A DNA stretch of 64,000 bases from a virus (IMGVR_UViG_2061766007_000924:1-64000); one strand, 5' to 3'; shown: positions 4,631-22,207, counted from the first letter of the stretch. Translations and numbers: made by a program. Notes: generated by a model not told the origin, from the letters alone.

Positions 4631-7600
4631 ATGGATGCTGCTATAAACGACTATAGAGCAAGAAGGGAGAAAAGACTTGCTGAAAGGGGTATCTATCCTG
4701 AGAAGATCAGCAAGATCATTGCATTTGCCCAAAGAAGAGCTGCAAGGCTGGATGCAAGAGGCTACAGGGCGGACGCAGAGGGAGACGATCAAGACAACAA
4801 TCAGAATGAGGGTGGCGGAGGTTCTTCTGATGGCGCTCATGGTAATACCAGACTGCCTTTTGGCCTTTGCATGAGGTTCGGCATAGACATAGACCCGTCA
4901 TGGGGGCCGAGAGAGGCTTGGGATGCTCTCGCTGGTAAGGGAATAACACCAGCAGGGGCTTATGAAAGGCTCAAGAAGGGCGAAGATCCGGGAACGCCAG
5001 ACACGCCGGAGCCCCCTAAAGAGCCCGTTAGAAAAATAGCCGATAAGGACTACGGCGGAGCAGAATATGGATCTCTCAGAGGAAGAAAAAGAGATTGGGG
5101 AAGAGGCTACGAGCCGTGGATGCTGTATGGTGATAAAATTGACGGAACCGGAGATGGGAGCTACGCGCCAAGTCGGATGTCTGAGTCGTTTTGGACGAAA
5201 ACAGACATGTTCAGGTATCTCAAAGAAAGGGGCGTAGAAGAGTTTGAAGATCCAGAAACGGGTGAGCTCATCAATCCGAAGGAGATGGAGCTGCCAAAAG
5301 CGGTGTTCAAAAGGGGAGTAACTGGGTATACGGCAGTAACAATAGGGCTTAGAGATGGAAGGTACACTGTTGTTGGCACCGACATGGACGGGAAGAAAAA
5401 GACGATAAAGGATTACGGCTCTTTGAAGGAAGCGAAAGAATATCTTGAGGCGTATGGGGTAAAGGAAGAGGACATAAAGCTGTCTCCAGCATTGAAAAAG
5501 AGAGAGAAAGAGCGCCTTGAGTGGCTGTCTTCTGACAAAAAGCTCTATTTCGAGGATGGCGGTGTTAAGTATGGCGATCCTAAGATAGAAAAAGACTGGA
5601 AAGGTTATTATTTGGAAGGTGAAGCTGAGGACGGCAGCAAATTCTCAAGAAAATTTATGTCCAAGGCAGAGCTTATTAAATACTTGAAGGATCAGGGCGT
5701 TGAAAGGGTAAAATTTGAGAAAGAGACCATCAATCCCAAAGAATACGAGATCCCGGATACGAAAGCCACAATAGGAGGAAGATCTTATCAGGATGTAGAA
5801 CTGAGAGTGAGCCCGTATGGTGAGGTGTCACTGATCGGTACGGACTTGGATGGCGAAAGCAGAGCTATTGCCATAAGAAGATATGGTGAGACGCTTGGTG
5901 CGTTCAAAGAGAGAATAAGTCAGGACTATGGGCTTGGCGAAGATAAGCTGACGATTACCGATGAGACAAAACAAAAAATGGCTGAGATAGAGAAGGAAGA
6001 GGAAGAGAAGGAGCGCAGAAGAAAAGAGTTCGAGTCAAAGGCCATAATGTGGCCCACAGGCAGGAAATATGCAGATATAGAGCTCATGAAGGACGGGGAC
6101 GGCGTTTACTCGTTCTATGGATATACGAAGGATGGAGACAAAAGGAGAATCGCTTACGGAGAAGATTTTTATGGCGCGGAGAAATATGCGGAGGAAGCAG
6201 GGCACGATATAAGCGAATTTATCAAGGATGATGATGTAAGAAAAGACTATGAACGCTACAAGGACTCGATGAAGGACTTTGAAGCGAAAGCGTCTGATTT
6301 TGCTGGAGATAAGTACGCTGATATACAGATCATTTATGAAGGTGGCATGTACAAAGTCAGGGGTATAAATCCGAGGGGCCGAATGAAGGAAATCGCCAGA
6401 GAGACAAGCTATGAGGGTCTTGAGAAAGTGCTGAATCAGTACGGCTATTCTCCGACACAGTTCCCGATGGACGATGAGGCCACAAAGCGTAAAGATAGGG
6501 CCATGAAAGCAAAGTATGCGCTTGCTACAGGTGGGTATTATTCGCTCGGCAAAAAGGACGAGGCGTTCAAGGATATCTGTGTTCAGCAAGATCCGTCCGG
6601 AGAATGGTACATTATAGGCACAGACGTTGACGGGAAAGAAAAGCAGGTCGAAATTGTTAGATCATGGGACGATGCTGTGACCAAGATGAGCAAATACGGA
6701 GTATCGGACTATAAGATGAAAGACAAGTCTGGAGCTGAGATGGGCAAGCCTACTTATGGCATGCACGGCGTAATGCTTATGAGAAAACCGGGCGGCGGAT
6801 TTGTTGTTTATGCAGACACAGACAGGTTCGGAGCGCATGAGATCATGTACGAGTCTCCGAAAGAAGAAGAAGCGAGAAAGTGGCTGAGAGACAACAATGT
6901 GCCTGAGAGTGGGATCAAGACAAAGGGCATGAATCCGAATGACGATGTTGTCAGAGTAGCGCATACAAAGACAATGAAAAACTTCGATACTCATAGAATG
7001 AAAGCCATTGAAGGAACATTTATTGAGGACATGTCAGAAGAGGACAAGAAGGATGCTGCTGACATGATGGCGGAACTGTTCAACCAAGGCGAGTACAGAG
7101 TAGCGAGAAGCACAGATTCGTTTGCTGGTATTTTGGAAAACGGGTATAAGAGTCAGATTGAAATGGGCAAGGGCGGATATGGAGCCTCAAAGGATAAAGA
7201 AGGAAGGAAAGATTGCAGCAATCAAATGTATGGGCACGGTGGGCTGGATAAAACAGAGTATGAGAAGATGGGTTATATTGCGCCTCCTGACATTGCAGAG
7301 GACTACGACACTGGGGATCATCCATTTTATGGCGGATATTCTTCGATGACATACACTCTGAAAAAAGATACACTAAAGGACAGAACAACGTATACATTCG
7401 GAGACTCGCTAAACACATATATGCATGGCAGAGGATCGTTGAAGTCTGCTGGATATGCTGGGGAAAACCCGACAATCGAGGGGCTTACAGGAATAGGCGG
7501 TAAGACATATATGGATAGAGCACTTAGGGCATACAGAGAGTACAAACGGGGAGACATTTCTTTCTCTGAAATGTTCAAAAGAGTCAGGAGCTTGGCTAAC

Positions 7601-7843
7601 AACAACTATATTGAGTTGCAATTTACAGGGCCGGTAACTGCGTCTGATATCAAGAAGGTGTCATTTGACAATGTTAAGCATATAAAAAGTGCGTTTTCAA
7701 ACATGACTCCAGAGAAGAGAAAGAAGACTATAAAGATATTAAAAGACAACGGTATTGAGGTCGAGTACAGGAAAGATAGATACAGTCCTTTTGTTGACGG
7801 ATGGGACTGGATTAAGAAAAATTATCCCGATGACGTTGCGTGA
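4631..7843 (+). CDS. Effector 1: basic leader + adaptor A + about 8 internal repeats + C-terminal DUF3626-like (ART-fold) domain
   Basis: RBS AAAGGAG before ATG 4631; YRARREKRL, RLDA/RADA, HGNTRLPFGLC...AWDALAGKG; C-terminus GYKSQIE...RTTYTFGDS...YIELQFTGPV. Confidence 0.7.
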   Translation: MDAAINDYRARREKRLAERGIYPEKISKIIAFAQRRAARLDARGYRADAEGDDQDNNQNEGGGGSSDGAHGNTRLPFGLCMRFGIDIDPSWGPREAWDALAGKGITPAGAYERLKKGEDPGTPDTPEPPKEPVRKIADKDYGGAEYGSLRGRKRDWGRGYEPWMLYGDKIDGTGDGSYAPSRMSESFWTKTDMFRYLKERGVEEFEDPETGELINPKEMELPKAVFKRGVTGYTAVTIGLRDGRYTVVGTDMDGKKKTIKDYGSLKEAKEYLEAYGVKEEDIKLSPALKKREKERLEWLSSDKKLYFEDGGVKYGDPKIEKDWKGYYLEGEAEDGSKFSRKFMSKAELIKYLKDQGVERVKFEKETINPKEYEIPDTKATIGGRSYQDVELRVSPYGEVSLIGTDLDGESRAIAIRRYGETLGAFKERISQDYGLGEDKLTITDETKQKMAEIEKEEEEKERRRKEFESKAIMWPTGRKYADIELMKDGDGVYSFYGYTKDGDKRRIAYGEDFYGAEKYAEEAGHDISEFIKDDDVRKDYERYKDSMKDFEAKASDFAGDKYADIQIIYEGGMYKVRGINPRGRMKEIARETSYEGLEKVLNQYGYSPTQFPMDDEATKRKDRAMKAKYALATGGYYSLGKKDEAFKDICVQQDPSGEWYIIGTDVDGKEKQVEIVRSWDDAVTKMSKYGVSDYKMKDKSGAEMGKPTYGMHGVMLMRKPGGGFVVYADTDRFGAHEIMYESPKEEEARKWLRDNNVPESGIKTKGMNPNDDVVRVAHTKTMKNFDTHRMKAIEGTFIEDMSEEDKKDAADMMAELFNQGEYRVARSTDSFAGILENGYKSQIEMGKGGYGASKDKEGRKDCSNQMYGHGGLDKTEYEKMGYIAPPDIAEDYDTGDHPFYGGYSSMTYTLKKDTLKDRTTYTFGDSLNTYMHGRGSLKSAGYAGENPTIEGLTGIGGKTYMDRALRAYREYKRGDISFSEMFKRVRSLANNNYIELQFTGPVTASDIKKVSFDNVKHIKSAFSNMTPEKRKKTIKILKDNGIEVEYRKDRYSPFVDGWDWIKKNYPDDVA

Positions 7844-7854: not shown

Positions 7855-7884
7855 TTGACAACAGACTTGGCGCAGCGTTATAAT
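7855..7884 (+). promoter_or_regulatory. SigmaA-type promoter for the 7902 gene
   Basis: TTGACA-18nt-TATAAT immediately after the effector 1 stop codon. Confidence 0.8.
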
Positions 7885-7901
7885 ATAGTGGGGGTGGAGA
7901 A

Positions 7902-8267
7902 ATGGATTTTAAGCTAATAGCAAAGGTAGAAGAAGCGCTCGTTTTCGAGGTTGGAGATGGTCTATACGTCACAGTGTACTGCGATCAGGACAAGGATGAC
8001 AAAATAGACACAAGCAAGGTTCAAGTCAATATACCGTGGACAAATCCTCTCGGCAGATTTGCGTGGTCGTATACAAAGTGCAGCAGCGACCCGCTGGAGG
8101 AGGAATGCATTTCGGTTATAGAGAAAAACAAGGAAGAGATAGTTGAACGGCTGAACAGGATTCAGGAGATGTACAACGAAAATCCTGAGATGAGAGATGA
8201 AGTCATTGAAATCAGCAACGAATATCTCGATGGGTTGAAAGACGGGGAACGAGTAGACTTAGAGTAA
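7902..8267 (+). CDS. Acidic 121-aa protein, candidate immunity protein for effector 1
   Basis: Directly downstream of the toxin-like C-terminus; has its own promoter and terminator. Confidence 0.6.
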   Translation: MDFKLIAKVEEALVFEVGDGLYVTVYCDQDKDDKIDTSKVQVNIPWTNPLGRFAWSYTKCSSDPLEEECISVIEKNKEEIVERLNRIQEMYNENPEMRDEVIEISNEYLDGLKDGERVDLE

Positions 8268-8280
8268 AACAATGTGTTAA

Positions 8281-8314
8281 GAGGTCATAGCAGAGGCTAT
8301 GGCCTCTATTTTTT
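8281..8314 (+). terminator. Intrinsic terminator
   Basis: GAGGTCATAG-loop-CTATGGCCTC followed by TATTTTTT. Confidence 0.7.
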
Positions 8315-8333: not shown

Positions 8334-9128
8334 ATGACAGACGTTGAAAGATTCAGACTCCGCAGGAGCAGAAGGTTGGCAGCGCGGGAAAGGATGGATG
8401 ACGAGGAAGAGAACGCAAACAACGGGGGCAAAAAAGGCGGACACGGCAACACAAAGCTGCCATACGGGTTATGCCACAAGTATGGTATCGAGATACAAAA
8501 AGGCTGGCAACCACGGGATGCTTGGGACGCTCTTGCGGAAAAAGGTGTCACTCCGGGCGATGAGTTTGCAAAGAGAGGATCTAAGCAGACAACGATCGAG
8601 ACGAAGCTTGGGACATATAAGAATACACGAGTAGAGAAGTACGGAAATCGGTATTTGATCAAGGGGGATATGCAGCCAACAGGAAAAGAGGGCTACGGGA
8701 GCAAGGGCGTTGACAACGTGCAGATAGCAGCATACACAAACAAAAAAGAGATGTTCGCGAGGCTGAAAGAGCACGGCATAACAAGTGTGGTGGATCCAGA
8801 TACGGGTGAAAAGGTGAATCCGATGAAGATGGACTTGCCAAAGGTCGTTGCTCAGAAAGGCGACAGTAGATACACAGACTTGGTGCTTGGGATTCGGTCA
8901 AATAAGTATGGTGTACCTTTCGAGAGAAAAGGCTTCACACTCGTGGCAAAGGATTTCGATGGGAAAAAGGTGGCAATGGGCACGTTCGATAGTCCAAAGC
9001 AAGCGAGAGACTATGCTATGGAAAAGTTGAAGTGCAAGAAAGAGGATATTCGAGAAACAAGAGACTACAAGGAAAAGGTAAGGCCGAAGATTGCAGAGAG
9101 CAACAGCCTATACAGACATTGGGCATAG
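8334..9128 (+). CDS. Effector-family protein 2: leader + adaptor A + about 2 repeats homologous to effector 1, no recognisable toxin domain
   Basis: AGGAGG RBS; FRLRRSRRL..RMDD, HGNTKLPYGLC; MFARLKEHG..DPDTGEKVNP matches MFRYLKERG..DPETGELINP of effector 1. Confidence 0.7.
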   Translation: MTDVERFRLRRSRRLAARERMDDEEENANNGGKKGGHGNTKLPYGLCHKYGIEIQKGWQPRDAWDALAEKGVTPGDEFAKRGSKQTTIETKLGTYKNTRVEKYGNRYLIKGDMQPTGKEGYGSKGVDNVQIAAYTNKKEMFARLKEHGITSVVDPDTGEKVNPMKMDLPKVVAQKGDSRYTDLVLGIRSNKYGVPFERKGFTLVAKDFDGKKVAMGTFDSPKQARDYAMEKLKCKKEDIRETRDYKEKVRPKIAESNSLYRHWA

Positions 9129-9347
9129 CTTTTCTCAAAAGTTGCTAAAAAGCTCTGCGAATTGCTACTTGTTTACACTTTGTTCATGAAAATGTCCATC
9201 GTAAATGATAAAATGTGCACGATGGAAAGAGTATAAGAAGCGGAAGCGCCGGGCAACTGGCGCTTTTATTATAATTGGGGCTTGCGTTTGCGGATGCATG
9301 CTTGGGAGCGCTTGGAAACAGGCGCTCTTTCTTTTTACCAACAACGG

Positions 9348-11549
9348 ATGAAGGGGAGTGACAGCTTGTACAAGAAACAGAATATAGTGGACTTCTCAAA
9401 ATTCGTTGACGGAAACGCGAAGTTCATTGAAAAGACAACAGGCAAATCTGTCAGGCCGAGGAACAAGGCGTACAATCAGGATGGATTTGTAAATCTGCTT
9501 ACGAATTATGGCACAAGCCGTGACTCGTCAGAGCATTATTTCTTCGAGTCGGAAGATCCTATTATGGACGATGAGCTGGAGAGGTTCTATGAGGGGAACG
9601 GGCTGTTCTCCAGAATCATTGACTTGCCAGCAGAAGAGGCCATAAAGCACGGGTTTGAGATAAAGGATCTTGCGGACGGCGAGACGAAGGACTTCTTCGA
9701 TGACTCTATGGATGAGCTTGAGTGGGACGAGAAGTTCATGACTGCGCTCAAGTGGGCGAGGCTTTTTGGCGGTTCAATCGGCGTAATGCTGATAAATGAC
9801 GGAAGGGGTCTGGAAGATCCGCTTGACTGGGATCATATCAAGTCAATTGATGACATTCAGGTTTACGACAGGTCGCTTGTTGTGCCGAATTATGCGTCAA
9901 TGTACAAGTATGAGGGCGAAGATCCTTCGAGGTCGAGGGGAAGCAGACTTGGCGTTCCTGAGAATTTCATGGTAACAAGCAAGTACGGTACTTTCACTGT
10001 TCACGAAAGCAGGTGCTTGATTTTCCAGAACGGCGTTCTTCCTGAAAGATGCACCAACGAGATTTACCAGATGTGGGGCATTCCTGAGTATATCAGGATT
10101 CACAGGGCAATCAAAGACGTAGAGGTTGCTCACGGCATGGCTCCGAAGATGCTGGACAGGTCGGTACAGGCTATCTACAAGATGCAGAATTTGGCGCTTG
10201 AGATGTCAACGGATCAGGGCGAAGAGAACATCTTGAAGAGGTTGCAGCTGATTGACCTTGCGAGAGGGCTTATGAACAGCATTGTCCTTGACGCTGAGGG
10301 TGAAGACTATGATTTCAAGTCTTTCACATTCACGGGCGTTTCGGATGTTATCAACACAACATGCAATTATCTGTCTGCGATTACGAACATACCGCAGACA
10401 GTTCTTTTTGGTCGTGCTCCGGCTGGTATGAATGCCACTGGTGACGGCGACATGGAGAACTACTACAACTATGTAGAGAGAATCCAGAAGCGCATGGTTA
10501 AGAAGAATCTGCGCTATTTGCTTGAAATTCTTGCGAAAGCAGGAGTCAGGAACAAAGAGATCAAGGGACATCCGCCGATCAAGATAGAGTTTAGTTCTCT
10601 TTGGTCTATGACAGAGCAGGAGAAAGTTGCGCTGGATCTGCAAAAGGCGCAGGTTGCTCAGACAAATGCCAATACAGCGAATGTCTATGTCCAGATGCAA
10701 GCGCTTGACCCGCAGGAAGTCAGGGATCAGCTTGCAAAGGATGGAGACTTTGAGATTGACACAATGCTGGATGACTACACCGATGAGGAGCTTGAGGAAA
10801 ACAATCCTGCCAACAAGCAGCAGCAAGACCAGATGGCTGCGATGATGGGCATGATGGGTGGAGGCGCACCCGGAGGCGGAGCGCCAGAAGGTGGAGCACA
10901 GAGCGGAAATCCAATGATGCCTCCAGAGGCGCAAGAAGGGGCTCAGGAAGCGCCGAAGCCTCAGATGGGTAATTTGCCGTCTGATGGCGGAAAAGACGTT
11001 CCTGATGAAAATCCGAAAGCTACAAGTGCAGAAGAAAAGAAAACTGAGAAGACAGTCGAAGAAGACGCTGACGATGTGAAGCCTCACATGCTTGGCGGAG
11101 TTGGAGTCATTGTTGTAAAGGACGGAAAGATTCTGACTGCTACGAGGATTAAAGGCAAAGGCACCGGACTCATTGGTGGGCCGGGAGGCCACATTGAGGA
11201 AGGTGAGACTCCGAAAGAAGCTGCTGTAAGAGAGACTTTGGAAGAGTTCAAAATCATTCCGAAGGATCTTGTGAGAATCGGCAGCAAGCTTGAGACGGGC
11301 ACAGGAATCAAAGTCGGCGGCGATAATGCAGAGCACTTGAGAAGCACCGTGTTCCTTTGCACCGAGTTCGAGGGAGAGCCAGAGTGTGACAATTATGAAA
11401 TGGCTATTCCCGTTTGGAGAGACTTGGATGAGCTCAGGCTTATGGATGACAGAATGTTCAAACCTTTCAAAGATGGGTTGAAGATGCTGAAAAATAAGGT
11501 CGCCAGAGGAATCATGGAAAACAAAAACTCTTGGGATGGAAAGTCCTGA
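9348..11549 (+). CDS. Portal protein (DUF1073-type) fused to a C-terminal Nudix hydrolase (alternative start TTG 9366)
   Basis: DGFVN, WARLFGGS, VHESR, IPQTVLFGRAPAGMNATGDGDMENYY portal motifs; low-complexity linker; Nudix box GGHIEEGETPKEAAVRETLEE. Confidence 0.9.
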   Translation: MKGSDSLYKKQNIVDFSKFVDGNAKFIEKTTGKSVRPRNKAYNQDGFVNLLTNYGTSRDSSEHYFFESEDPIMDDELERFYEGNGLFSRIIDLPAEEAIKHGFEIKDLADGETKDFFDDSMDELEWDEKFMTALKWARLFGGSIGVMLINDGRGLEDPLDWDHIKSIDDIQVYDRSLVVPNYASMYKYEGEDPSRSRGSRLGVPENFMVTSKYGTFTVHESRCLIFQNGVLPERCTNEIYQMWGIPEYIRIHRAIKDVEVAHGMAPKMLDRSVQAIYKMQNLALEMSTDQGEENILKRLQLIDLARGLMNSIVLDAEGEDYDFKSFTFTGVSDVINTTCNYLSAITNIPQTVLFGRAPAGMNATGDGDMENYYNYVERIQKRMVKKNLRYLLEILAKAGVRNKEIKGHPPIKIEFSSLWSMTEQEKVALDLQKAQVAQTNANTANVYVQMQALDPQEVRDQLAKDGDFEIDTMLDDYTDEELEENNPANKQQQDQMAAMMGMMGGGAPGGGAPEGGAQSGNPMMPPEAQEGAQEAPKPQMGNLPSDGGKDVPDENPKATSAEEKKTEKTVEEDADDVKPHMLGGVGVIVVKDGKILTATRIKGKGTGLIGGPGGHIEEGETPKEAAVRETLEEFKIIPKDLVRIGSKLETGTGIKVGGDNAEHLRSTVFLCTEFEGEPECDNYEMAIPVWRDLDELRLMDDRMFKPFKDGLKMLKNKVARGIMENKNSWDGKS

Positions 11550-11566: not shown

Positions 11567-12805
11567 ATGGACAAAGCTGTTGAAAAATTCAGAAAGCGCA
11601 GACAGGAAAGACTTGATGCGAAAAACGGAGCTAAGGAAGTCGAGTACGATAGCGTGGCTGAGTTCAGAAAACGTAGAGAAGAACGTCTCAATTCCAGAAT
11701 GGATGCTGGAGTAGGCTGGGTTTTTGGCGTTCTGAAAGAAAACGGCGTTGACACTCAGGGTATGAGTGTAAAAGAGGCTTTTGAGGCGCTTGGCAAGATT
11801 AACGGTGGTGGGAAAAATGGAAAGAGTGAAGCTGCTGCCAAAGAAAAGAACAATTCGCCAAAGAATGAACCGACAAACAGCAAAAAGTCTTCAAGTGGCG
11901 GAGAGGTAAAAGGCAGTTCCTACACCAACCGATATAAGACAAGTGGTGGAGTCAGCTATCCGAAGCTCAAGAAGGGTGCTGTGTATGATGAAGATACGTT
12001 GAAGGAAGTCAATAGGCTTGCGGATAGCACAGAAAGCAACAGGCCACCTAAAACAAGAGCACAAGAAAAAGCCCTCAAGTCGATGACAAGCAAAGATATA
12101 ACGTATCAGAAAGATCCTGATGGGACTGTTGTGGGATCTATTCCCGGACTGTCCCAGATGTATGATACAAAAGTTAAAGGGAAAAGTCAGGCTGTTCAGG
12201 ATGCGTATGATAAGAGAATCGAGCAGGGCAGACAGATCACTAAGGACATGGTTAGCATTAGTGACAAGCTTGGCTCACGCATGATGGGGCTTGAAAACTG
12301 CTTCAAGGGCGGAGAGAGCACTTCAAGAAAGATAGATAAAGTAAAAGACAAGTGGAAGCAGAAGGGCGAGGATCTGACTGATGAGCAAGCGCTTGCCAGA
12401 ATGGACGATGTTGTCCGATTCTCATACAAATGTGACCACGGTAAAATGGTAGAACAGATCAAGGGACTTGAGTCAGAACTTGAGAAAAACGGATATGAGA
12501 TAACAGAGCGTGATAACAAGTTCCTGCCTAAAGAGGATGGAACGCCGAGAGATTATAAGGCCGTTCATTTGCAGGTCAAAGCTCCGAGCGGAGAACTGTT
12601 TGAGGTGCAGGTGCAGTCGGAAGAAACGATCAAGGTAAAGAACAAGAATCACTCACTCTATGAGAGGTCAAGGGTTCTGGATGATAAAGATCCGAAACAG
12701 GCCGCTGAGAAAACAAAACTGGTAAACGATATGGTAAATAACTGGTCTGGGATGGCAGAGCCTGACGGAATTTTAGATCTGCCAACATTCAAGAAAAAGA
12801 AGTAG
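11567..12805 (+). CDS. Effector 3: double leader + RelA/SpoT-type small alarmone synthetase (toxSAS/Apk2-like)
   Basis: FRKRRQERLDA and FRKRREERL..RMDA; synthetase motifs K..ES..RKI, DDVVRFS, DYKAVHLQ, FEVQVQS. Confidence 0.85.
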   Translation: MDKAVEKFRKRRQERLDAKNGAKEVEYDSVAEFRKRREERLNSRMDAGVGWVFGVLKENGVDTQGMSVKEAFEALGKINGGGKNGKSEAAAKEKNNSPKNEPTNSKKSSSGGEVKGSSYTNRYKTSGGVSYPKLKKGAVYDEDTLKEVNRLADSTESNRPPKTRAQEKALKSMTSKDITYQKDPDGTVVGSIPGLSQMYDTKVKGKSQAVQDAYDKRIEQGRQITKDMVSISDKLGSRMMGLENCFKGGESTSRKIDKVKDKWKQKGEDLTDEQALARMDDVVRFSYKCDHGKMVEQIKGLESELEKNGYEITERDNKFLPKEDGTPRDYKAVHLQVKAPSGELFEVQVQSEETIKVKNKNHSLYERSRVLDDKDPKQAAEKTKLVNDMVNNWSGMAEPDGILDLPTFKKKK

Positions 12806-12821: not shown

Positions 12822-12850
12822 TTGACAAAAATATATGACAGCGGTAAAAT
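12822..12850 (+). promoter_or_regulatory. SigmaA-type promoter for the 12869 gene
   Basis: TTGACA-17nt-TAAAAT. Confidence 0.8.
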
Positions 12851-12868
12851 ATACACGGGGGTGAGTAG

Positions 12869-13156
12869 ATGAAGAAATACGCATATTTCAGGGACGGGCT
12901 TCTGCCTGATTATATTGTTCGTGAGACGATAGACGGCAAAGAAGCAATTGCCGAGGCTTGGGATTACAAGAACAAGCGGTGGGTTCCAGATGCTGCTGCA
13001 TGGGAGACTATCGAAGATGGTCAAGGAAACTGGGCTCTTGATGCTGACTATGTTGACGAGTACATTCAGAAGATGATTGAGCGTTTTCCTGATGTGGAAG
13101 AGCGTGAACTGAAAGTCAAGGAGGATGGCGCAAAGCGCAAATATCCTTGGTGGTAG
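12869..13156 (+). CDS. Candidate immunity protein for the alarmone synthetase (IapK-like position)
   Basis: 95 aa, Trp-rich, between the SAS and the HD hydrolase, with its own promoter. Confidence 0.6.
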   Translation: MKKYAYFRDGLLPDYIVRETIDGKEAIAEAWDYKNKRWVPDAAAWETIEDGQGNWALDADYVDEYIQKMIERFPDVEERELKVKEDGAKRKYPWW

Positions 13157-13191
13157 AAAGCAATTCAGACTGCTAAATGTTGCAGAAACGG

Positions 13192-13220
13192 TTGACACAA
13201 ATTCACTTCTGCGGTAAAAT
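13192..13220 (+). promoter_or_regulatory. SigmaA-type promoter for the HD hydrolase; duplicate of the 12822 promoter
   Basis: TTGACA-17nt-TAAAAT; shares ATGTTGCAGAAACGGTTGACA and GCGGTAAAATA with 12808-12851. Confidence 0.8.
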
Positions 13221-13244
13221 AACTGCGGAAGGGAAGTGGTTAGC

Positions 13245-14487: not shown

Positions 14488-14656
14488 GGAAGTCATGGTA
14501 AAATACATTGGGAGAGGCGATCCTTTGTATTGCCTCAAGGGGAAGGTATACAAGAAAGTTGGCGAGTCACACGGGCTGTGGAGAATCATAGATGAGTCTG
14601 GAGAAGATTATCTGTATGCTCCAGAGCTGTTTGAGATTGTGAAAGAAGACAAGTAA
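14477..14656 (+). CDS. Candidate immunity protein for effector 4
   Basis: 59 aa, overlaps the effector 4 stop; VKYIG...GKVY...RIIDESGEDYLY motif. Confidence 0.65.
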   Translation: MENKEVMVKYIGRGDPLYCLKGKVYKKVGESHGLWRIIDESGEDYLYAPELFEIVKEDK

Positions 14657-14691: not shown

Positions 14692-16152
14692 ATGGACAAT
14701 GCCGTTATTGAATATAAGAAAAGAAGACAGAAGAGGCTTGATGCCAAGGCGGTAGAACAGTACAGGATCAGGCGAGAAGCAAGGCTTCACGGCAGAATGG
14801 ATGCCGATGGAGACGAAGAAAACAATGGAGGCGGCAAGAGAGGCCACGGTAATACAAGGCTTCCGTTTGGACTGTGCCAAAGGTTTGGGATTCAGATAGG
14901 TAAAGATTGGGGGCCGTCCGAAGCATGGGATGCGCTTGCAGATAAAGGAATTACACCGAAGGGCGCATTCGACAGGCTAAAGCGAGGGTACGATCCCGGA
15001 GACCCCGGCAGTGATGAGGAATTTGTGGATATCAGCTCGTTGGCGGCGATTACAAAGAAAGCGTTCACAGCAGAATCCGCGACTGAGTATCTGAAAAATA
15101 TAAAAGAAAGAGAACAGAAAAGAAAAGAAGAAGAGAAAAGAATACAGGATGAACTATGGGCAACAAAAAGTGTGAGGGATAACGCATTATTAGATTATAA
15201 GAATACGCAAAAATCAATAGATAATTTCAGAAAAATGCTGGAAGATGACTCAATTGATGATATCACAAGGCTTAGATGTAGCAGGGCAATTGAAAAATAC
15301 AAAACATGGCAAAAGAATTTATCGGAACAAGTTGATAAATATACAAAGACAGAAAAAGAGCTACAGGAAAAGCTTGAGGGGCTGAAATCTGGATTCAAGG
15401 ATTACGAAAAAGAGAGGATCAAGGAAGCGATAGAGGCTAAGTATCCGTCTTGGGACAACTGCAACACAAGTCAGGAAGTGTTAGAAAGAGCAGATGCACT
15501 TGCGCTGGCGGATTCAAAATATGGGCGTGTAGCCGCCGCTGTTAAATCAGCAGAGAAACATAATGTAAAATACTTCAAGCCAGAGAAGACGGCAACGAAG
15601 TTGAGCGATGATGAGATCATTCAGAGCCTTGGCGGCGGAGACATGACAAAAGGTTCTTGCGCTTCGCTGTGTATGGCCTACATAGCGAAAAAGATGGGCT
15701 ATGATGTCAATGATTTCCGAGGAGGATCTTCACAGAGCACGTTTTCCCATGAGTGCAGGAGTCTCATGAAGGGAGTAGGCGCTGAGGAAGAGACGAATCG
15801 AGACGGCTACAAATCAGCTCATGCAACGCTTGACAAGATGGTCGAGGGCAAAGAATACTGGTTTGAGTGCGGACGGCATGCGGCAATTGTAAGGAAAACC
15901 GAAAAAGGGTATGAATATCTGGAACTGCAAAGCAGTTCTAACAACGGCTGGTTTCCGCTTACAGATAGGACACTCAAGAATAGATTCGCTCTTCACAGGA
16001 CGAGGAGCCATGCTGGAATAAGATTTGACATATCTTCGTCTATTGTAGACATTGAAAAGGCTATGAACGACCCGGCTTTTCAGGCGGTGTTTGGGTTTAT
16101 CAATACAGCAGAGGGAGAACGGAAGATGGGGAGGAGTGGCTATGCGAAGTGA
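14692..16152 (+). CDS. Effector 5: double leader + adaptor A + coiled coil + papain-like cysteine peptidase domain
   Basis: YKKRRQKRLDA, YRIRREARL..RMDA, HGNTRLPFGLC; GGGDMTKGSCASL (Cys) ... GRHAAIVRK (His) ... YLELQS. Confidence 0.7.
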   Translation: MDNAVIEYKKRRQKRLDAKAVEQYRIRREARLHGRMDADGDEENNGGGKRGHGNTRLPFGLCQRFGIQIGKDWGPSEAWDALADKGITPKGAFDRLKRGYDPGDPGSDEEFVDISSLAAITKKAFTAESATEYLKNIKEREQKRKEEEKRIQDELWATKSVRDNALLDYKNTQKSIDNFRKMLEDDSIDDITRLRCSRAIEKYKTWQKNLSEQVDKYTKTEKELQEKLEGLKSGFKDYEKERIKEAIEAKYPSWDNCNTSQEVLERADALALADSKYGRVAAAVKSAEKHNVKYFKPEKTATKLSDDEIIQSLGGGDMTKGSCASLCMAYIAKKMGYDVNDFRGGSSQSTFSHECRSLMKGVGAEEETNRDGYKSAHATLDKMVEGKEYWFECGRHAAIVRKTEKGYEYLELQSSSNNGWFPLTDRTLKNRFALHRTRSHAGIRFDISSSIVDIEKAMNDPAFQAVFGFINTAEGERKMGRSGYAK

Positions 16153-16378
16153 GTTTTATAAGGAGAAATCAGGGGACAAAGTCTGGTGGTTAGATAACGA
16201 CAGCATAGGTGAGTTCGTTTTTAGCTTTGACAGGAAGAAGACATACAACTTGTTTCAGGACTATCCGCACAAACTGAGTGTGGAAGAGTGGAAGACATTC
16301 AACAGAGAGAATCCTTATTGGGAAAACTTTTTCAAGGACAGAAACGAAAAATACAAGAAAAAGCACGATATTGATTGA
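16142..16378 (+). CDS. Candidate immunity protein for effector 5
   Basis: 78 aa, overlaps the stop; FYK..DKVWW...FSFD.K..YNLF.DYP...ENPYW..FF.DR. Confidence 0.65.
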   Translation: MRSEFYKEKSGDKVWWLDNDSIGEFVFSFDRKKTYNLFQDYPHKLSVEEWKTFNRENPYWENFFKDRNEKYKKKHDID

Positions 16379-16384
16379 AACGGA

Positions 16385-17677
16385 GTGATTCTGTTGGACG
16401 GTGCGAGAAGACAAAAGCGAATGGATGATAAGGCCGTTCAACTCTATAAAATGCGCAGGGATGAGCGACTTTTGCGCAGGTATGATGCAGAAGAGGAAGA
16501 GGGCAACAATGGAGGGGGGAACGGCGGAGGTCATGGAAACACAAAAATCCCGTTCGGATTATGCCAAAGAGAGGGCATAAAAGTAGACCCGAACTGGACA
16601 CCGAGGGACGCTTGGGATGCGTTGGCTGGTAAGGGCTACAGTGCAGGAGATGTCTACAAAGAGCTCAAAGAGACCGGAAAAGTTGGCAAGAAGAGCTCCA
16701 CCAAGACGAAGAAACCACCAACGAGAATAGAGGAAAGCCATTTTCAGCCGGAATTTACATCAAAGACATACAGAAAAAACACAATGGTTTTCGCTGACTA
16801 TATAAGCGACCATTGTGACGATGGAAACATAACCGAGTTTCTTGGCGCAGGTGCAGCTGGAGGGAAAAAGCCGTCAAAGTTCAAAGTCACGAGACTGTCA
16901 GGAGCAGACGGGGCTTGCGTAACTTATACACGGGATCTGGACGATATTGAGATTCGTATTCCGAATTTTGCTTCTATAAAAGACGAGAGGACAAGGGCTC
17001 AAGCAATAAGGACATTTGCTCATGAGTATACGCATTACCTTGACATGCTTGCCAGAGGTGAGCACGGGGATCATTTTACCGGGGCAAATTCAAAGATAGC
17101 TGATGAGCTGGAAAAGGCAAAAAGCAAGGGGATCGGAGAAGAAGTCTCAAATGTCTTCAAAGAGTACAATAAAGGCTACGAGAAGCTCAAGAATGACTAC
17201 GATGCCAAGGTAAAGACGTTCGACCGAGATTTTGCCAAGCAAAAGTTTGGTGACAATTTCCCGGAGTGGCTGAAAGAGGACGGAACGTGGAATTATTCCC
17301 TTGGGTGGAGAGCTTGGCAAGCGCATCAACCGGAAATGAAGAAATACAGCTCGGAGAGGAAAAAGGCGGCTAAAAAAATGGCTACTGATAGTTCTTTCGA
17401 GAGACGGGCGTATATGGACGGCGCAACAAGCTTGCAGGGGATATACGATTCGATTCATGGCGGAGAGCTGAGAGACCAAAAGGTTGTAAAGTACGGACAT
17501 TCACTTGGTTATTTCAAGAGAGACAAGGAAAACAGAGCGGTAGAGGTCATAGCTGACTATGTGGCTTTAAGGGCAACTAACTCAAAGTATGCAGATATGT
17601 TCGCGAAGGATCATCCGGGGCTTGCCGCTGCACTGGATGAGGCCATAGTAGAGATGACTAAGGTTTTGAGGGGGTAA
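16385..17677 (+). CDS. Effector 6: leader + adaptor A + HExxH zinc metallopeptidase domain
   Basis: YKMRRDERL..RYDA, HGNTKIPFGLC; FAHEYTHYLD; YGHSLGYF...EVIAD. Confidence 0.75.
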   Translation: MILLDGARRQKRMDDKAVQLYKMRRDERLLRRYDAEEEEGNNGGGNGGGHGNTKIPFGLCQREGIKVDPNWTPRDAWDALAGKGYSAGDVYKELKETGKVGKKSSTKTKKPPTRIEESHFQPEFTSKTYRKNTMVFADYISDHCDDGNITEFLGAGAAGGKKPSKFKVTRLSGADGACVTYTRDLDDIEIRIPNFASIKDERTRAQAIRTFAHEYTHYLDMLARGEHGDHFTGANSKIADELEKAKSKGIGEEVSNVFKEYNKGYEKLKNDYDAKVKTFDRDFAKQKFGDNFPEWLKEDGTWNYSLGWRAWQAHQPEMKKYSSERKKAAKKMATDSSFERRAYMDGATSLQGIYDSIHGGELRDQKVVKYGHSLGYFKRDKENRAVEVIADYVALRATNSKYADMFAKDHPGLAAALDEAIVEMTKVLRG

Positions 17678-17681: not shown

Positions 17682-17930
17682 ATGGATGAGAGCATGAGAA
17701 AGTTTTTCGAGAATGACAGGCTGTATATGGAAGTGATGCGGCTGTATGGAGAATGCGATGATGAGGGCGTGATGAGGTATTTTGACGCAGACAGTGAAAA
17801 GAACCTTAGAAAAAAGATCAAAGTGCTCAAGAAACTGAATGATGGGGTGTCTCCAGAGGAAATTGGAGCTGACTATTACGAGATTCTTGAGAATCTGCCT
17901 GACGGAGACAAAAACAGGGGCAGTTGGTAA
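17682..17930 (+). CDS. Candidate immunity protein for effector 6
   Basis: 82-aa acidic ORF 4 nt after the effector stop, followed by a terminator. Confidence 0.6.
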   Translation: MDESMRKFFENDRLYMEVMRLYGECDDEGVMRYFDADSEKNLRKKIKVLKKLNDGVSPEEIGADYYEILENLPDGDKNRGSW

Positions 17931-17989: not shown

Positions 17990-18940
17990 ATGGCTACAAT
18001 CGCTACAGTGAAAGATCCGCCTATCAGGACGCTGATGGCGGTTAGTAGCTCAAGGGGCAATTCAAGCACAGAGAAGATACCGAGAAGAAAGCCAGTTTAT
18101 CCGATTTCTGCGGAGAGAGAGCTTGCAAGGGTGTTTCTTCCTGTAGCTGTCATGATAAGAAAGAAGTCGAAGCCGTACATTGACAGGCTGATGGCTGTAT
18201 ACGATGTCTGGTCACAAGAGAATGTGAGAACGGACGCGAGAATCAGCATGCAGGATGCAGCCGGGATGATTCTGGATGAGTACGGCGCAGACATACAGGG
18301 TGACTTAGACATCGAGCAAATAACAAAAGGCGTTCAGAGGACTGCAAAATATGCCAGAGGCATTTCAATCAGAGACTGGAAAAGTCTTGTGGATGATGCC
18401 TTGGGCTTTGATATAGACGAGCCTTTCTACGTGGAGCAGACGGAAGATTTGCTTAACAAGTGGGTGTATGAGAGCGTTCAACATATCACGAGTTATCCAC
18501 AGGAGTATTTAGGGAAGGTTCAGGAGGCTATCATTTGGGGGTACACAACGCACCAACCGATGGTCAACGTGTATCGAAGAATTGAGAAGCTGACAGGCGA
18601 CACAAGAGCTCACGCAAGGATGATTGCACGGGATCAGATGGGGACGCTCAATTGCAGAATGACACGATATGAGCATGAAAGCATGGGCGTTTCAAAGTAT
18701 AAGTGGGTTACAAAACACGATTTCCGAGTGAGAGAATGTCACAGGGAATTGGATGGGCATATATTTGACTGGAACAATCCTCCTGCTCAATGGTACATGA
18801 CTAAGAGTAGGGGGATTGTTTATACAGGGGAGTACGCACATCCCGGTGAAAGTTATTGTTGTCGGTGCCGTGCAGCTCCTGTGTTTGATGAAAAAATCGT
18901 AGAGGCGGCAAAGGCCAACAGAAAGTTTTATGCTGTATAG
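17990..18940 (+). CDS. Minor head protein MuF (SPP1 gp7 family), short form with no toxin extension
   Basis: RARMIARDQ-like (HARMIARDQ), YKWVT..DFRVRECH..LDG..F.W, HPGESYCCRC. Confidence 0.9.
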   Translation: MATIATVKDPPIRTLMAVSSSRGNSSTEKIPRRKPVYPISAERELARVFLPVAVMIRKKSKPYIDRLMAVYDVWSQENVRTDARISMQDAAGMILDEYGADIQGDLDIEQITKGVQRTAKYARGISIRDWKSLVDDALGFDIDEPFYVEQTEDLLNKWVYESVQHITSYPQEYLGKVQEAIIWGYTTHQPMVNVYRRIEKLTGDTRAHARMIARDQMGTLNCRMTRYEHESMGVSKYKWVTKHDFRVRECHRELDGHIFDWNNPPAQWYMTKSRGIVYTGEYAHPGESYCCRCRAAPVFDEKIVEAAKANRKFYAV

Positions 18941-18945: not shown

Positions 18946-21900
18946 GTGATTGCCATTAAGGACTACAAAGCCATATACGAATACAGAGAAAGACGGCAAT
19001 ATAGGATTGATGGCAAGCGTCTTGATGATGAGTGGAAGACGATCAAAGGCACTCATGTCATGATAGATGATGAAGGATCTATCACAAAAGGGCCTGAGAA
19101 GCTGAGGAATCTGTCAAGTAAAAAGCCAAAAAACTTGACAGTCGGCAAAGAGATGTCTCCAATCAATTCGGACTATGTCTATGATGATGGAGACACCGAG
19201 GACGATTTCACTCATAAGAATCTCAAAAAGCTCAAGAAAATCTATGATGAGCAGGGCATGGATGCTGTTCATGATGAATGGTACAAGTTCAGAATGGCAG
19301 ACAGCACCAAGGATATACACCAGATAAGCAAAGACGAGGCGGACGAGATCATGTATGATAACGTCCGTCAAAGCATTTATGATGGCTGGTTTCGAGCAGC
19401 AGACAGTTCTTACAAGCCGCAGTTGACGGATGCAATTGTAAAGAATCCAGAGATGCGGAACGCAGCTCTGAATTTGGCTTATGAGAACTACAGGAACAAC
19501 ACTGAAAATCCGTTGCCTTTTGAAGAGTTTCTGGTAACACCTATTAAGATGTACAGAGGCGAAAAGGGTCAAAAGCATGTCGAAGATGACATTTTCGATG
19601 CCTACACCTTTGATCCTAAGATGGCAAGGCATTTTGCAGGTGACAATGGCACTGTAACTGAGACTGAGGTAAGGCCGATTGACACTTACGGAAGCATGAG
19701 GGCGGTTGGCGAGGCTGAGATATGGGTGCCGAGACAGCTTTCTCCTGTTGGCTACAAGGGCGACTCCAGAGAGGACGGTATCACTTGGGAGAGGTTCGAT
19801 CCTCAGAAGTGGGCTCTTGAAGACTACAAGGAAGAGGATGACGGCTGCGAGGATCTGCTTGAATCTATCATTCAGGAAGCTGAGATGGTCAAGCTGTTTG
19901 ACGGCAGCAGCAAGGAATCTGACAGACTGACGATGCAGAGATGCATTGAGAGCATTCAGATCATGGCCTTGCAGCTGACAGCGAAGCTTAGGCCAAAGCA
20001 TGAAGACAGCGCTTTCTTCGCTGGAGAGTTGAACAGCAATCTTGGTGAGAGAAACATTCTTTATCCAGAAGTACAGGCATTCAGAGAGCGCAGACAAAAG
20101 AGACTGGATGCAAAGAGTGACGAAGATGAAGGGCGCTGGGTAACGACAGAGGAAAAGCATAAAGTTCATATCAACGAAGAGGGAGTACCGGACAAGGGAA
20201 ATCCTCATGTAATAGCAGCAATGAAGGGTGAGGGCAAGAATCCAAAAACAAGAGCCGAGGTTATAACCGCAAGAGTTAAGAAAAAGTCGGCGGCTATAAA
20301 GGAACTTGTCAAGAGAGTCAACGAGAAAAATGAAGCTCATGAAAAAGCAATAGACGAAAAAAGCGAAGCAGACAAGGAACTGAGAAATGCCAAAAGAGGG
20401 CTCAGACGAGTTAAATCCAAAAAAGACTTTATCAAAGGGCTTGGATATAAAGAGGGCGATAAGAATAAAATGCTTAGAGATTCCGATGATTTGCAAATTC
20501 AGATGGACAAGCTAAGAGACAGTCGGCCCGTTTATAGACTTAGCGATGAAGAAAAGGCCAAATACACAGAGCTTGAGAGCAGAAAGAATCAAGTAGATTA
20601 TGCGGCAGGTGTATATGATGATTGCTTTGGGCCAGACGCTTTTACAAGAGAAAAGGTGGCGCAAGCACGGGAACGGTCAGCGGCTGCTGACAAAAAGATG
20701 AGGCAAGCTGAGAAGGAGTATCGTCAGGCGAGAAAAGAGCTCAAGCAAAAGGCGAAGAACGGAGATATAAACAAAGCGCGATTGTACACAGATGAAGAGA
20801 GAGCGTCTGAGATCAAAAAAGTTGTTGAATCGCCACAATGGGGAGACTTAAGCCAAGAGCAGAGAGACAAAGCTATGGCGGCTATCAACGGAGCGTCTGA
20901 TGCAGAAATACAGCTGTTAAGCAGGACGTTTGATAAAGTAAGATTCAACGACAGCTACGGAGCAACGACAATAGGCGGCTCAACGGCTTGGTACACTCCA
21001 AGAACAGGGGCAATCACGTTGTCACAAGAGGACATGGGAAAGCCAAAAACAGTGTGGCACGAATTTGGGCATTTCTTGGACGATGCAGAGGTTAGTGGCT
21101 GTGACGCTGGAGAAACGAGGCTGATGGGGTCAACATACAAAGACACCTTGTCACATCGAGTCTCAAGTGATAAAATATTGCACAGTGAAAAAGCGGCTGC
21201 GGATATGCAAAAGCTGTTGGATGAAGAAGCTCCCGGAAAGTATCGAATTGAGTCTTCCAACGGCAACATGCTTCGCGTCTTCGATGTTGAAAAGGGTGAA
21301 TATGTGGATGCTTCGGAAGATATGTCATATGACTATTATCTATCTGAGGTAACATGCAGACATTTTCATGAATTCACCTTTAGGGACAAGGAATATGATG
21401 ATTATTTAAGGTCTATTGGTTATCCTTTGGATAGTGAAATGCCGAAATACAGTGATTTCATGGAGACATATACGACTCCAAAGCGCAAATTGGAAAGAGA
21501 AAGAGAAAAGTATCCGGGTGCGAAAAAAGAGTACATGAACAAAATGAGCAAATTCCATTTGCAAAGGAATCAAGCGATAGACAAGAATTTGGAAGAGTAC
21601 AGAAGACAGACTAAAGCATATGACGATAGGTGCACAGAGAGGGGAAATCAAGTTGGAGCAATATCGGACATTATGTGCGGTATGATGCGAGGAAAAGGGG
21701 CATGGATATACGGATGCCACAAGGAAGATTATTATAGCATTATGGATGCACCTGCTAAAGAAGCTGTCGCACATTATCATCAAATGAGAGTCATGGGAAG
21801 CAAGTATGGGATGGAGCTTCTGAATAGTTTGCTGCCGAGCGTGGCGCATGGGCTGGAAGAGGCTTACAATGAATGGCTGTGGAGGAATGTAGATGTATAA
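18946..21900 (+). CDS. Effector 7: tandem [leader + adaptor B + ART-like domain]-[leader + adaptor B + coiled coil + HExxH metallopeptidase]
   Basis: YRERRQYRIDG/RLDD, WKTIKGTHVMIDDEG; MYRG..AYT..A..F..GEAEIWV; internal FRERRQKRLDA + GRWVTTEEKHKVHINEEG..GNP; VWHEFGHFLD. Confidence 0.7.
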   Translation: MIAIKDYKAIYEYRERRQYRIDGKRLDDEWKTIKGTHVMIDDEGSITKGPEKLRNLSSKKPKNLTVGKEMSPINSDYVYDDGDTEDDFTHKNLKKLKKIYDEQGMDAVHDEWYKFRMADSTKDIHQISKDEADEIMYDNVRQSIYDGWFRAADSSYKPQLTDAIVKNPEMRNAALNLAYENYRNNTENPLPFEEFLVTPIKMYRGEKGQKHVEDDIFDAYTFDPKMARHFAGDNGTVTETEVRPIDTYGSMRAVGEAEIWVPRQLSPVGYKGDSREDGITWERFDPQKWALEDYKEEDDGCEDLLESIIQEAEMVKLFDGSSKESDRLTMQRCIESIQIMALQLTAKLRPKHEDSAFFAGELNSNLGERNILYPEVQAFRERRQKRLDAKSDEDEGRWVTTEEKHKVHINEEGVPDKGNPHVIAAMKGEGKNPKTRAEVITARVKKKSAAIKELVKRVNEKNEAHEKAIDEKSEADKELRNAKRGLRRVKSKKDFIKGLGYKEGDKNKMLRDSDDLQIQMDKLRDSRPVYRLSDEEKAKYTELESRKNQVDYAAGVYDDCFGPDAFTREKVAQARERSAAADKKMRQAEKEYRQARKELKQKAKNGDINKARLYTDEERASEIKKVVESPQWGDLSQEQRDKAMAAINGASDAEIQLLSRTFDKVRFNDSYGATTIGGSTAWYTPRTGAITLSQEDMGKPKTVWHEFGHFLDDAEVSGCDAGETRLMGSTYKDTLSHRVSSDKILHSEKAAADMQKLLDEEAPGKYRIESSNGNMLRVFDVEKGEYVDASEDMSYDYYLSEVTCRHFHEFTFRDKEYDDYLRSIGYPLDSEMPKYSDFMETYTTPKRKLEREREKYPGAKKEYMNKMSKFHLQRNQAIDKNLEEYRRQTKAYDDRCTERGNQVGAISDIMCGMMRGKGAWIYGCHKEDYYSIMDAPAKEAVAHYHQMRVMGSKYGMELLNSLLPSVAHGLEEAYNEWLWRNVDV

Positions 21901-22207
21901 GGATACGTTCAAGCTCAATCAAGAGCTTGTTGAGCTCTTGAATGATGGGTTTTTTGATGATATAGAGTTCAAAATGTGCGTAGGCAAAGACGGAAAGCTC
22001 GATTTTGATGGATTGCTGAGTTTCTGGATTGGCTTGGGCGGAAGAAAGTATACAATGAAGTATCTTTTGAAGTATGGCGGGTTGGGGTCGCCTTGGGTTC
22101 AATATGATAACAGAGACGAGGATGAAAAAAAGTACAAGAAACTGATTGAGGAAAACAAGACTTGGGAAGAGGCGTATGGAAAGCCGCCCAAGGATGTGCT
22201 TTTGTAG
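21893..22207 (+). CDS. Candidate immunity protein for effector 7
   Basis: 104 aa, overlaps the effector stop, followed by a terminator. Confidence 0.55.
   Translation: MYKDTFKLNQELVELLNDGFFDDIEFKMCVGKDGKLDFDGLLSFWIGLGGRKYTMKYLLKYGGLGSPWVQYDNRDEDEKKYKKLIEENKTWEEAYGKPPKDVLL

Follow-up and report, generated by a model that had tools for sequence, protein, structure and literature searches.

A Shared N-Terminal Tag on Candidate Capsid Cargo Genes in the Head Module of an Uncultured Gut Phage

The Head Module and Its Candidate Cargo Genes

Seven genes in the head module of an uncultured gut phage of ~100 kb, and the N-terminal tag that they have in common, are the subject of this report. The phage is represented by the linear IMG/VR record IMGVR_UViG_2061766007_000924 (101,395 bp, 92% complete according to CheckV), of which the first 64 kb (positions 1-64,000) constitute the window analyzed. 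The major capsid proteins of this phage and of Faecalibacterium phage FP_Brigit are 62.6% identical, and a homologue of one of the cargo proteins originates from a metagenome-assembled genome of the Lachnospiraceae. All genes of the region lie on the + strand, in the order terL (3250-4581), g4586, g7902, g8274, the portal-NUDIX gene (9282-11549), g11567, g12869, g13236, g13687, g14438, g14677, g16091, g16385, g17682, the gene of a short MuF protein (17990-18940), g18946, and g21893; an HNH endonuclease gene, the prohead protease/scaffold gene (23060-24619), and the genes of a cement protein and the major capsid protein follow. The candidate cargo genes g4586, g8274, g11567, g13687, g14677, g16385, and g18946 thus share one orientation within the head module, downstream of terL and upstream of the major capsid protein gene. 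An earlier, sequence-only reading of this DNA had placed seven genes between terL and the protease gene; all seven open reading frames (ORFs) are present on the + strand, and the internal ATG starts at 4631 (g4586), 8334 (g8274), and 14692 (g14677) are backed by homologues.

Anatomy of the Shared Tag

The modules common to the seven proteins are an Arg-rich leader, found in six of them, and two adaptors; adaptor A is contained in four proteins plus one degenerate copy, and adaptor B in two. That the N-termini are shared, as had been proposed from the sequence, is borne out by blastp between the paralogues and by a leader profile that recognizes six of the proteins, g13687 being connected via adaptor B. 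The leader, [YF]RxRRxxRL and often doubled, is a basic amphipathic helix ending in an R-h-D-A-[DE] junction (h, hydrophobic), behind which comes an acidic, Gly/Asn-rich linker. A hidden Markov model (HMM) of the leader, built from homologues, matches exactly 6 of the 166 ORFs of the genome at E <= 3e-8, and g18946 is matched twice (residues 8-44 and 376-399). Adaptor A is a stretch of ~60 residues (GHGNTRLPFGLCxRFGI...W.PRDAWDAL..KG) in g4586, g8274, g14677, and g16385, with E values between paralogues of 1e-32 to 5e-13 (blastp), while g11567 combines a leader with the degenerate copy. Adaptor B, RWVTxxxGxKVxIxxxGxPxxGNPxV (also written WxTxxGxHVxIxxxGxxxxGxP), is common to g18946 and the leaderless g13687 (E 2.6e-7, blastp). 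In AlphaFold2 models calculated with alignments (pLDDT 89.5 for g14677 and 88.1 for g4586), the modules are arranged in the order leader helix or helices, disordered acidic Gly-rich linker, small helical adaptor A, and payload.

An R-h-D-[AD]-[DE] junction motif is located upstream of 105 of 150 adaptor A copies, compared with 2.8% of control windows. The related signatures DAD[DG] and DAE[EG] occur in only 6 of the 166 ORFs, namely in three cargo proteins (at the end of the leader), the scaffold (four times), the portal (just before the NUDIX domain), and one other. A second leader type (type 2, ARDRMIRRMLRMDAEE) is found in relatives and resembles the extreme C-terminus of the scaffold, which reads SARDRMIKR in the window; the top non-cargo match of the type-2 leader HMM is the window scaffold (residues 504-516, E 4e-4), followed by the scaffold of FP_Brigit (0.016).

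Adaptors can replace each other. In some g13687 orthologues the place of adaptor B is taken by an HPRDxxGRF motif, and in some orthologues of the first unit of g18946 by adaptor A. Given these swaps on orthologous payloads, and the portal fusions described below, the adaptors are interchangeable joints by which head-associated parts are connected to payloads.

Two further observations on N- and C-terminal modules come from relatives. The distant relative L001 encodes, at 1514-1960, a 148-residue protein in which two type-2 leaders and EHPRDEGGRFTSG are followed by just a short tail, giving the impression of a nearly payload-free tag. In FP_Brigit (locus L012, 2429-6786), three genes between terL and the portal gene end in a common D-x-[ED]-V-x-[ED]-M-L-x-x-V-F motif, the first having an extra internal copy (e.g., DAEVTEMLTEVFG); this motif is unrelated to the leader and adaptors of the window.

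Payload Domains of the Candidate Cargo Proteins

Cargo 1, g4586 (4631..7843, +), is a protein of 1,070 residues composed of two leader helices, an acidic/Gly-rich linker, adaptor A, about seven repeats, and a SopF/DarT-like ADP-ribosyltransferase (ART) fold. The ART fold is assigned to residues 776-1051, for which SopF (7dn8) is the best structural match (Z 12.7 over 232 residues, root-mean-square deviation 4.8), followed by DarT chains (Z 8.5-9.4) and, at a distance, by the next best hit (4.9); the Foldseek probability is 1.0. The nearest named clusters by language model are DUF3626, a domain that is contained in SopF (PMC6682159), and the Pfam model of DUF3626 gives no match to g4586. The SopF-like C-terminus is retained in all 21 of the 21 long g4586 homologues. 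The repeats (window 5036-6900) are ~7 tandem modules, each made up of a three- to four-stranded sheet and a helix-extended-helix-like motif. A weak Ish1 match covers residues 281-295 of the ORF numbered from 4586, and the fold search yielded no convincing match; DNA binding is possible. Cargo 2, g8274 (8334..9128, +; 264 residues), contains a leader, adaptor A, and a single beta-plus-helix repeat, is related to g4586 by blastp (E 6e-30), and is devoid of an effector domain, as the earlier reading had implied. Homologues of about 250-340 residues are widespread.

Conservation of g4586-like and g8274-like proteins across the clade, together with the beta-sheet repeats and the Ish1 match, is what would be expected if some members of the set, chiefly these two, were structural internal head or ejection proteins, serving in DNA binding or as a conduit, with their enzyme domains being secondary and no toxin arsenal being involved. 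Such a role as the explanation of the locus is regarded as very improbable: the C-terminus of g4586 is a clear ART fold, g4586 is still accompanied by a partner gene that has a promoter of its own, and the other five proteins bear bona fide toxin-type cassettes.

Cargo 3, g11567 (11567..12805, +; 412 residues), has a doubled leader, the degenerate adaptor A, and a low-complexity linker in front of what its sequence identifies as an Apk2-type RelA/SpoT synthetase domain. This payload matches a small alarmone synthetase structure (E 2.9e-5) and the C-terminus of XopAD (1e-18), and it is 29% identical to the MuF/Apk2 C-terminus of a Mannheimia phage (E 8e-8). In cargo 4, g13687 (13687..14487, +; 266 residues), a different N-terminal helix and adaptor B precede a conserved C-terminal domain of no recognized fold. 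Among 39 homologues the invariant residues of this domain include E122, H147, E149, H177, WKH207-209, and HWFE229-232; sequence and profile searches of the family against Pfam and PDB gave no match, and nothing related was found among 50,697 GenBank phages. Cargo 5, g14677 (14692..16152, +; 486 residues), consists of a doubled leader, adaptor A, a coiled-coil hairpin, and a papain-like C-terminus, the best fold matches all being papain-like proteins (OspI, the C39 domain of ComA, AvrPphB, a CdiA-CT, and others). A VIA comparison of the model was dominated by the coiled coil and is uninformative for both the papain-like domain and adaptor A. In cargo 6, g16385 (16385..17677, +; 430 residues), leader and adaptor A are followed by a zincin domain (HEYTH).

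Cargo 7, g18946 (18946..21900, +; 984 residues), is composed of two fused units, the first with leader, adaptor B, and a YRG/GExE domain, the second with leader, adaptor B, a coiled coil, and a zincin domain (HEFGH). It is the only cargo protein in which two effector-type domains (unit 1 and the zincin) occur on one polypeptide in the head context; its orthologue in the related locus L013 adds an ADPrib_exo_Tox domain. Matches of the HExxH domains of g16385 and of g18946 unit 2 to SprT-like/WLM families are weak and below threshold. Unit 1 is found free-standing in L002 (398 residues) and as protein P0205 (375 residues); its YRG, RPIDT, and GExE motifs are invariant, and a language-model comparison points tentatively to DRAT. 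Alignment by hhalign with the ADPrib_exo_Tox-type domains of adaptor A proteins returned a probability of 0.2, and unit 1 is for this reason not called an ART. The Pfam ART match in the L013 orthologue falls into the inserted domain (residues 72-243), outside unit 1.

Sequence and profile searches of PDB were empty for the C-termini of g4586 and g14677, g18946 unit 1, the g13687 family, and the zincin family, and no LPD/PolyVal signature domain was matched in the cargo proteins by Pfam at E <= 0.01. Of the six toxin-type C-termini postulated in the sequence-only reading, the ART fold of g4586 and the Apk2-like domain of g11567 are well supported by fold and profile comparison, and the g13687 domain did turn out to have no relative in Pfam or PDB searches. 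The papain-like and zincin assignments are weak, and "ART-like" for g18946 unit 1 is a label based on motifs and the language-model lead, to which hhalign and the PDB searches added no support.

Partner Genes and Their Signals

A variable C-terminal toxin-type domain together with a small ORF of less than 150 residues is found for six of the seven genes. That each of the six effector genes is directly followed by one or two such ORFs was already part of the earlier reading; the arrangement is confirmed, and effector and small ORF stay paired in relatives, co-varying with the payload. In L002, L013, and L014, the partners of g4586, g13687, g16385, and g18946 adjoin their respective payload genes.

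The partner of cargo 1, g7902 (7902-8267, +; 121 residues; element 7855..8307), is preceded by a perfect TTGACA-18-TATAAT promoter of its own (7855-7884) and followed by a terminator (8280-8307). Homologues are found behind the SopF-like gene in L013 (27% identity) and L014 (49%). Directly 3' of g11567 (element 12822..13667) lies g12869 (12869-13156, +; 95 residues), a candidate IapK-like inhibitor that has no similarity to Mannheimia IapK and no homologue among the GenBank phages. It is followed by g13236 (13236-13667, +), an Aph1-like HD hydrolase with an HD_4 match, located two genes downstream of the synthetase gene and 46% identical to the Mannheimia phage Aph1 hydrolase (E 1e-41). Both genes are preceded by an 11/12 sigma-70-like promoter, at 12822-12850 and 13192-13220, respectively. 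The top three + strand sigma-70-like sites in 20 kb are those directly upstream of g7902, g12869, and g13236.

The remaining partners are g14438 of cargo 4 (14477..14656, +; 59 residues from M14 of the ORF; phrog_34144), which overlaps the cargo gene by 11 nucleotides and has counterparts behind the g13687 orthologues of L013 (97% identity) and L014 (66%); g16091 of cargo 5 (16142..16378, +; Pfam DUF7675, 6e-28), again with an 11-nucleotide overlap; g17682 of cargo 6 (17682..17930, +; 82 residues; phrog_29156; terminator 17939-17968), kept behind the zincin gene in L002 and L013; and g21893 of cargo 7 (21893..22207, +; 104 residues; terminator 22226-22253), with similar ORFs at the same place in L013 (48% identity) and L014 (29%). 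Most cassettes end in a terminator.

Terminators behind the cassettes and separate promoters for some would also suit late-expressed toxins that are never packaged, but are released at lysis or active in the producing cell, with the common N-terminus serving only regulation, oligomerization, or recombination. A precedent is given by the MuF toxin Bxa, which is reported to be active after release from cells (PMC11699363), and packaging is, for the phage studied here, a prediction. This explanation is nevertheless considered quite unlikely, as payloads with adaptor A or B occur fused to the portal, the head-module location is strictly kept across relatives, and the N-termini do not look like signal peptides, the leaders being charged helices.

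Breadth of the Carrier Family

Searching a profile of leader plus adaptor A against 1.84 billion representatives, with clustering at 50% identity, revealed 509 clusters with adaptor A, of which 306 score E <= 1e-10. Protein lengths range from 81 to 1,886 residues, and the module is nearly always N-terminal. IMG/VR loci contain two to five adaptor A ORFs per ~20 kb, some of the proteins having two copies, and five such ORFs are present in L001. A Pfam scan of 87 adaptor A proteins gave no match over adaptor A itself and no MuF domain in any of them (0 of 87); downstream of the adaptor it identified ADPrib_exo_Tox in five proteins, NUDIX and ADP-ribosyl cyclase in two each, and Zeta toxin, Methylase_S, Peptidase_M90, and Phage_portal_3 in one protein each. 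The N-terminal tag is an undescribed one: neither Pfam nor PHROGs covers adaptor A, and tblastn of leader plus adaptor A and of leader plus adaptor B against the 50,697 GenBank phages returned nothing.

Exchange of Cassettes between Relatives and Carriers

Two of the cassettes recur on other carriers. The papain-like domain forms the C-terminus of MuF in Butyrivibrio virus Ceridwen and in 16 Streptococcus prophages, where the ORF behind the MuF-papain gene is 52% (Ceridwen) and 50% (IPP45) identical to g16091; Ceridwen even has the same 11-nucleotide overlap. Likewise, Mannheimia phage 1152AP2 has a MuF protein whose C-terminus is matched by the Apk2-like domain, and the hydrolase encoded downstream in that phage is the 46% identical counterpart of g13236 mentioned above.

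Between relatives, payloads are exchanged behind a conserved tag. The post-portal gene of L013, a near-identical phage, resembles g11567 over the first ~80 residues (59% identity over a 135-column alignment including the linker), then continues with a Zeta toxin in place of the Apk2-like domain and is followed by a different small ORF. That ORF is 51% identical to the one behind the Zeta gene of L014, which is found at a different position; Zeta toxin and small ORF move as a pair. L013 does not contain the papain-like plus DUF7675 cassette. In the post-MuF protein of L013, the g18946 orthologue, the extra ADPrib_exo_Tox domain is inserted at residues 72-243. The earlier notion of a polymorphic array is upheld by swaps such as that of the Apk2-like domain and Zeta toxin; it was overstated for the SopF-like protein and the zincin, both of which are conserved.

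Comparing L013 (9356-9981) with the window (12869-13667), the Aph1-like HD hydrolase is kept at 89% identity despite the Zeta toxin swap, while the first small ORF is changed. The hydrolase may therefore act beyond neutralizing the adjoining synthetase, since L013 is devoid of the Apk2-like toxin. At window 14692-16684, the leaders of the zincin orthologues P0002 and P0006 of relatives are resembled more closely by the leader of g14677 than by the truncated leader of the window's own zincin gene, which suggests that the papain-like plus DUF7675 cassette entered by recombination inside leader/adaptor sequence.

Links to Portal, MuF, and Scaffold

The portal protein (9282..11549, +; Phage_portal_3, 2e-72) carries a C-terminal NUDIX domain (1e-15) with an EEDADD sequence just before it. 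The linker between portal and NUDIX domain is rich in Gln, Met, Gly, and Pro, and among relatives the NUDIX domain is located either on the portal (L013, L014, and FP_Brigit) or on a separate adaptor A protein (L001). Fusions between portal and tagged payloads exist: protein P0129 unites on 1,620 residues a portal (80-438), NUDIX (808-914), adaptor A (937-1010), and ART domain (1399-1584), whereas NUDIX, adaptor A, and ART form a separate gene in L001. The portal of L001, in turn, has leader-like repeats, adaptor B, and a probable acetyltransferase-type domain (judged by eye), and that of FP_Brigit has the structure portal-NUDIX-"HPRDENGQF"-extra domain.

The MuF protein (17990..18940, +) is short and without toxin, as had been noticed from the sequence: 316 residues without C-terminal extension, with Phage_Mu_F at residues 193-295 (7e-15) and phrog_324 (1e-48). 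The N-terminal MuF domain by which MuF polymorphic toxins are recognized (PF04233/PF06152 or MuF3/4) has no match in any of the seven cargo proteins according to Pfam and PHROGs. The idea of a carrier distinct from MuF is supported by this result and by that for the 87 adaptor A proteins; the term "MuF-independent" is true in cis only, since the short MuF could be a docking partner. A short MuF protein is present beside the cargo genes in every relative examined, payload cassettes are common to MuF fusions, and adaptors are fused straight to portals. These facts would fit packaging in trans, with the adaptor acting as a MuF- or portal-binding module and the whole being a split MuF toxin system. 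This possibility is judged unlikely, as none of the scanned adaptor A proteins carries a MuF domain and short MuF proteins are also common in toxin-free phages (PMC5576092).

The prohead protease/scaffold fusion (23060..24619, +; phrog_530, 4e-72) contains four xDADD sites and the C-terminal SARDRMIKR helix.

Proposed Mechanism and Its Standing

Taking the modular anatomy, the family, the cassette exchange, and the portal fusions as a basis, the seven genes are, by their sequences, probably capsid cargo genes, in which a detachable loading tag is borne by separate effector genes and the payload is not fused to a head protein. The steps predicted in this scheme are docking, cleavage, ejection, toxicity, and immunity. 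Leader and adaptor would anchor the protein in the procapsid during assembly, the docking site being the coat, the scaffold, the portal, or the short MuF. Cleavage at the acidic junction by the prohead protease would come next, just as DADD sites of similar sequence would be cut in the scaffold and in the linker ahead of the portal's NUDIX domain, and the payloads would stay in the head and exit with the DNA. In the newly infected cell they would act in takeover, in counter-defense, or in harming non-immune hosts. Each payload would be neutralized by its small downstream genes, in the producing cell and perhaps, for those genes equipped with a separate promoter, also in a lysogen. Finally, leader and adaptor sequences would double as recombination sites for the swapping of payload-plus-partner cassettes, which would travel among tagged carriers as well as between these and MuF or portal fusions.

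Several points weigh against the capsid cargo interpretation. FP_Brigit, the nearest isolate, has no adaptor A match. The SopF-like 1,070-residue protein and the zincin are not polymorphic but conserved (about 20-25 clusters each, 25 for the zincin), for which reason some members may be structural or processing proteins; the zincins are perhaps processing peptidases and not toxins. Proteins of at least 100 kDa would need to unfold or be cut in order to traverse the tail, the acidic motifs may just mirror composition, and lysogeny is deduced from only one tyrosine recombinase. With respect to the payloads, the papain-like fold matches of g14677 are weak (E >= 0.018), and only motifs and a language-model lead point to an ART-like nature of g18946 unit 1. 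The type-2 leader HMM misses the scaffolds of L001 and L002, and the type-1 leader HMM of the window misses the scaffold; with matches this patchy, the notion of the leader as a copy of the scaffold helix was dropped as a firm claim for this phage, and scaffold mimicry is a lead and not a result.

A more far-reaching version of the capsid cargo interpretation is tentative and rather doubtful as a whole. According to it, leader, junction, and adaptor would constitute a protease-releasable capsid-loading address, partly copied from the C-terminal helix of the scaffold, with which a large clade of gut Bacillota phages loads any payload; adaptors A and B and HPRDxxGRF would be interchangeable docking modules, and the address might represent a general code for tailed phages. 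If true, such a cargo-loading code would be comparable to the targeting peptides of encapsulins.

Other Features of the Window

A tyrosine recombinase gene at 62383-63681 (Phage_integrase, 5.6e-32) is the only lysogeny-type gene found among those looked for; a serine recombinase is not present. A temperate lifestyle is suggested by this gene and by relatives lying on long contigs. The head-module location of the cargo genes is clear. The HNH endonuclease gene (22314-23012; phrog_374, 1.5e-63) separates the last cargo cassette from the prohead protease gene. It looks like a mobile insertion because it is missing at the equivalent place in L013 and is represented by a 140-residue homologue in L014. 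Over window positions 1-24000 and 46000-64000 purines are in strong excess on the + strand (GC skew about 0.25-0.31, AT skew up to 0.28); the excess falls to near zero over 24-46 kb, i.e., the capsid-to-tail structural genes.

Relation to Known Systems

The system is best classed with the known head-packaged polymorphic toxins and polyvalent proteins, of which it is a variant with a new type of carrier. MuF polymorphic toxins (Jamet et al. 2017, PMC5576092; Apk2, PMC12226406; Bxa, PMC11699363) equally have variable C-terminal toxins in the head/packaging module, each followed by an immunity-type ORF, and two cassettes of the window (papain-like plus DUF7675, and Apk2-like plus Aph1-like hydrolase) are homologous to theirs. 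Of the published Apk2-IapK-Aph1 layout (PMC12226406), the synthetase and the Aph1-type hydrolase two genes downstream recur; at the place of IapK lies the 95-residue candidate inhibitor g12869. A preprint on the T7 portal and the stringent response is of no relevance here. In contrast to the MuF toxins, the payloads described here are detached from MuF, a short protein encoded by a gene of its own; their N-termini consist of a leader and an adaptor for which Pfam has no family; and a phage has six or seven such genes, not just one.

Polyvalent proteins (Iyer et al. 2017, PMC5512222) and head-associated ART/Nudix genes (PMC9503650) include predicted head-packaged, co-injected ARTs, zincins, RelA/SpoT domains, and portal-Nudix proteins, and the same kinds are found in the window, g18946 and its L013 relative being multi-effector polypeptides that end in a zincin. 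The general idea that several effectors are packaged in the head, and that enzymes encoded next to head genes are packaged too, was already in the literature (PMC5512222, PMC9503650). Different from polyvalent proteins, most effectors are here separate genes, each with a detachable tag and its own partner, and Pfam showed no LPD or other polyvalent-protein domain at E <= 0.01. In the literature searched, only MuF and portal fusions are named as phage carriers (PMC3482391, PMC5576092, PMC5512222, PMC9503650, PMC11699363).

A short N-terminal tag that sends unrelated proteins into the prohead is known from the capsid-targeting sequence of T4 (IPI-III and Alt), which is removed by the gp21 prohead protease (PMC3012670). 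The conserved junction of the tag described here would be consistent with such a removal, and the cargo in both cases includes ART. The two tags have no sequence similarity, however, and the putative one described here is longer (leader, linker, and ~60-residue adaptor) and is attached to cargo with immunity-type genes that is exchanged as cassettes. In P1 (Dar) and in phages like phiKZ and SPN3US (PMC9024508, PMC7411985), several nonstructural proteins are packaged in the head and reach the cell together with the DNA, albeit by means of dedicated loading proteins or unrelated propeptides and without toxin/immunity cassettes.

Significance

Fusion to a head protein is the only form in which MuF toxins and polyvalent proteins are known, and for free-standing enzymes encoded beside head genes a route into the capsid is known only for T4, P1, and jumbo phages. 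The tag described here, being defined, widespread (~500 clusters), present on several genes per phage, and found also on portals, is a concrete candidate for a loading signal, and it would explain how a whole set of enzymes could be delivered by one phage at the first moment of infection. Toxin-plus-partner cassettes are seen moving between carriers, and new toxin/partner pairs are supplied, including one with a domain that has no known fold relative by sequence. If the tag does direct encapsidation, chosen proteins could be loaded into phage heads.

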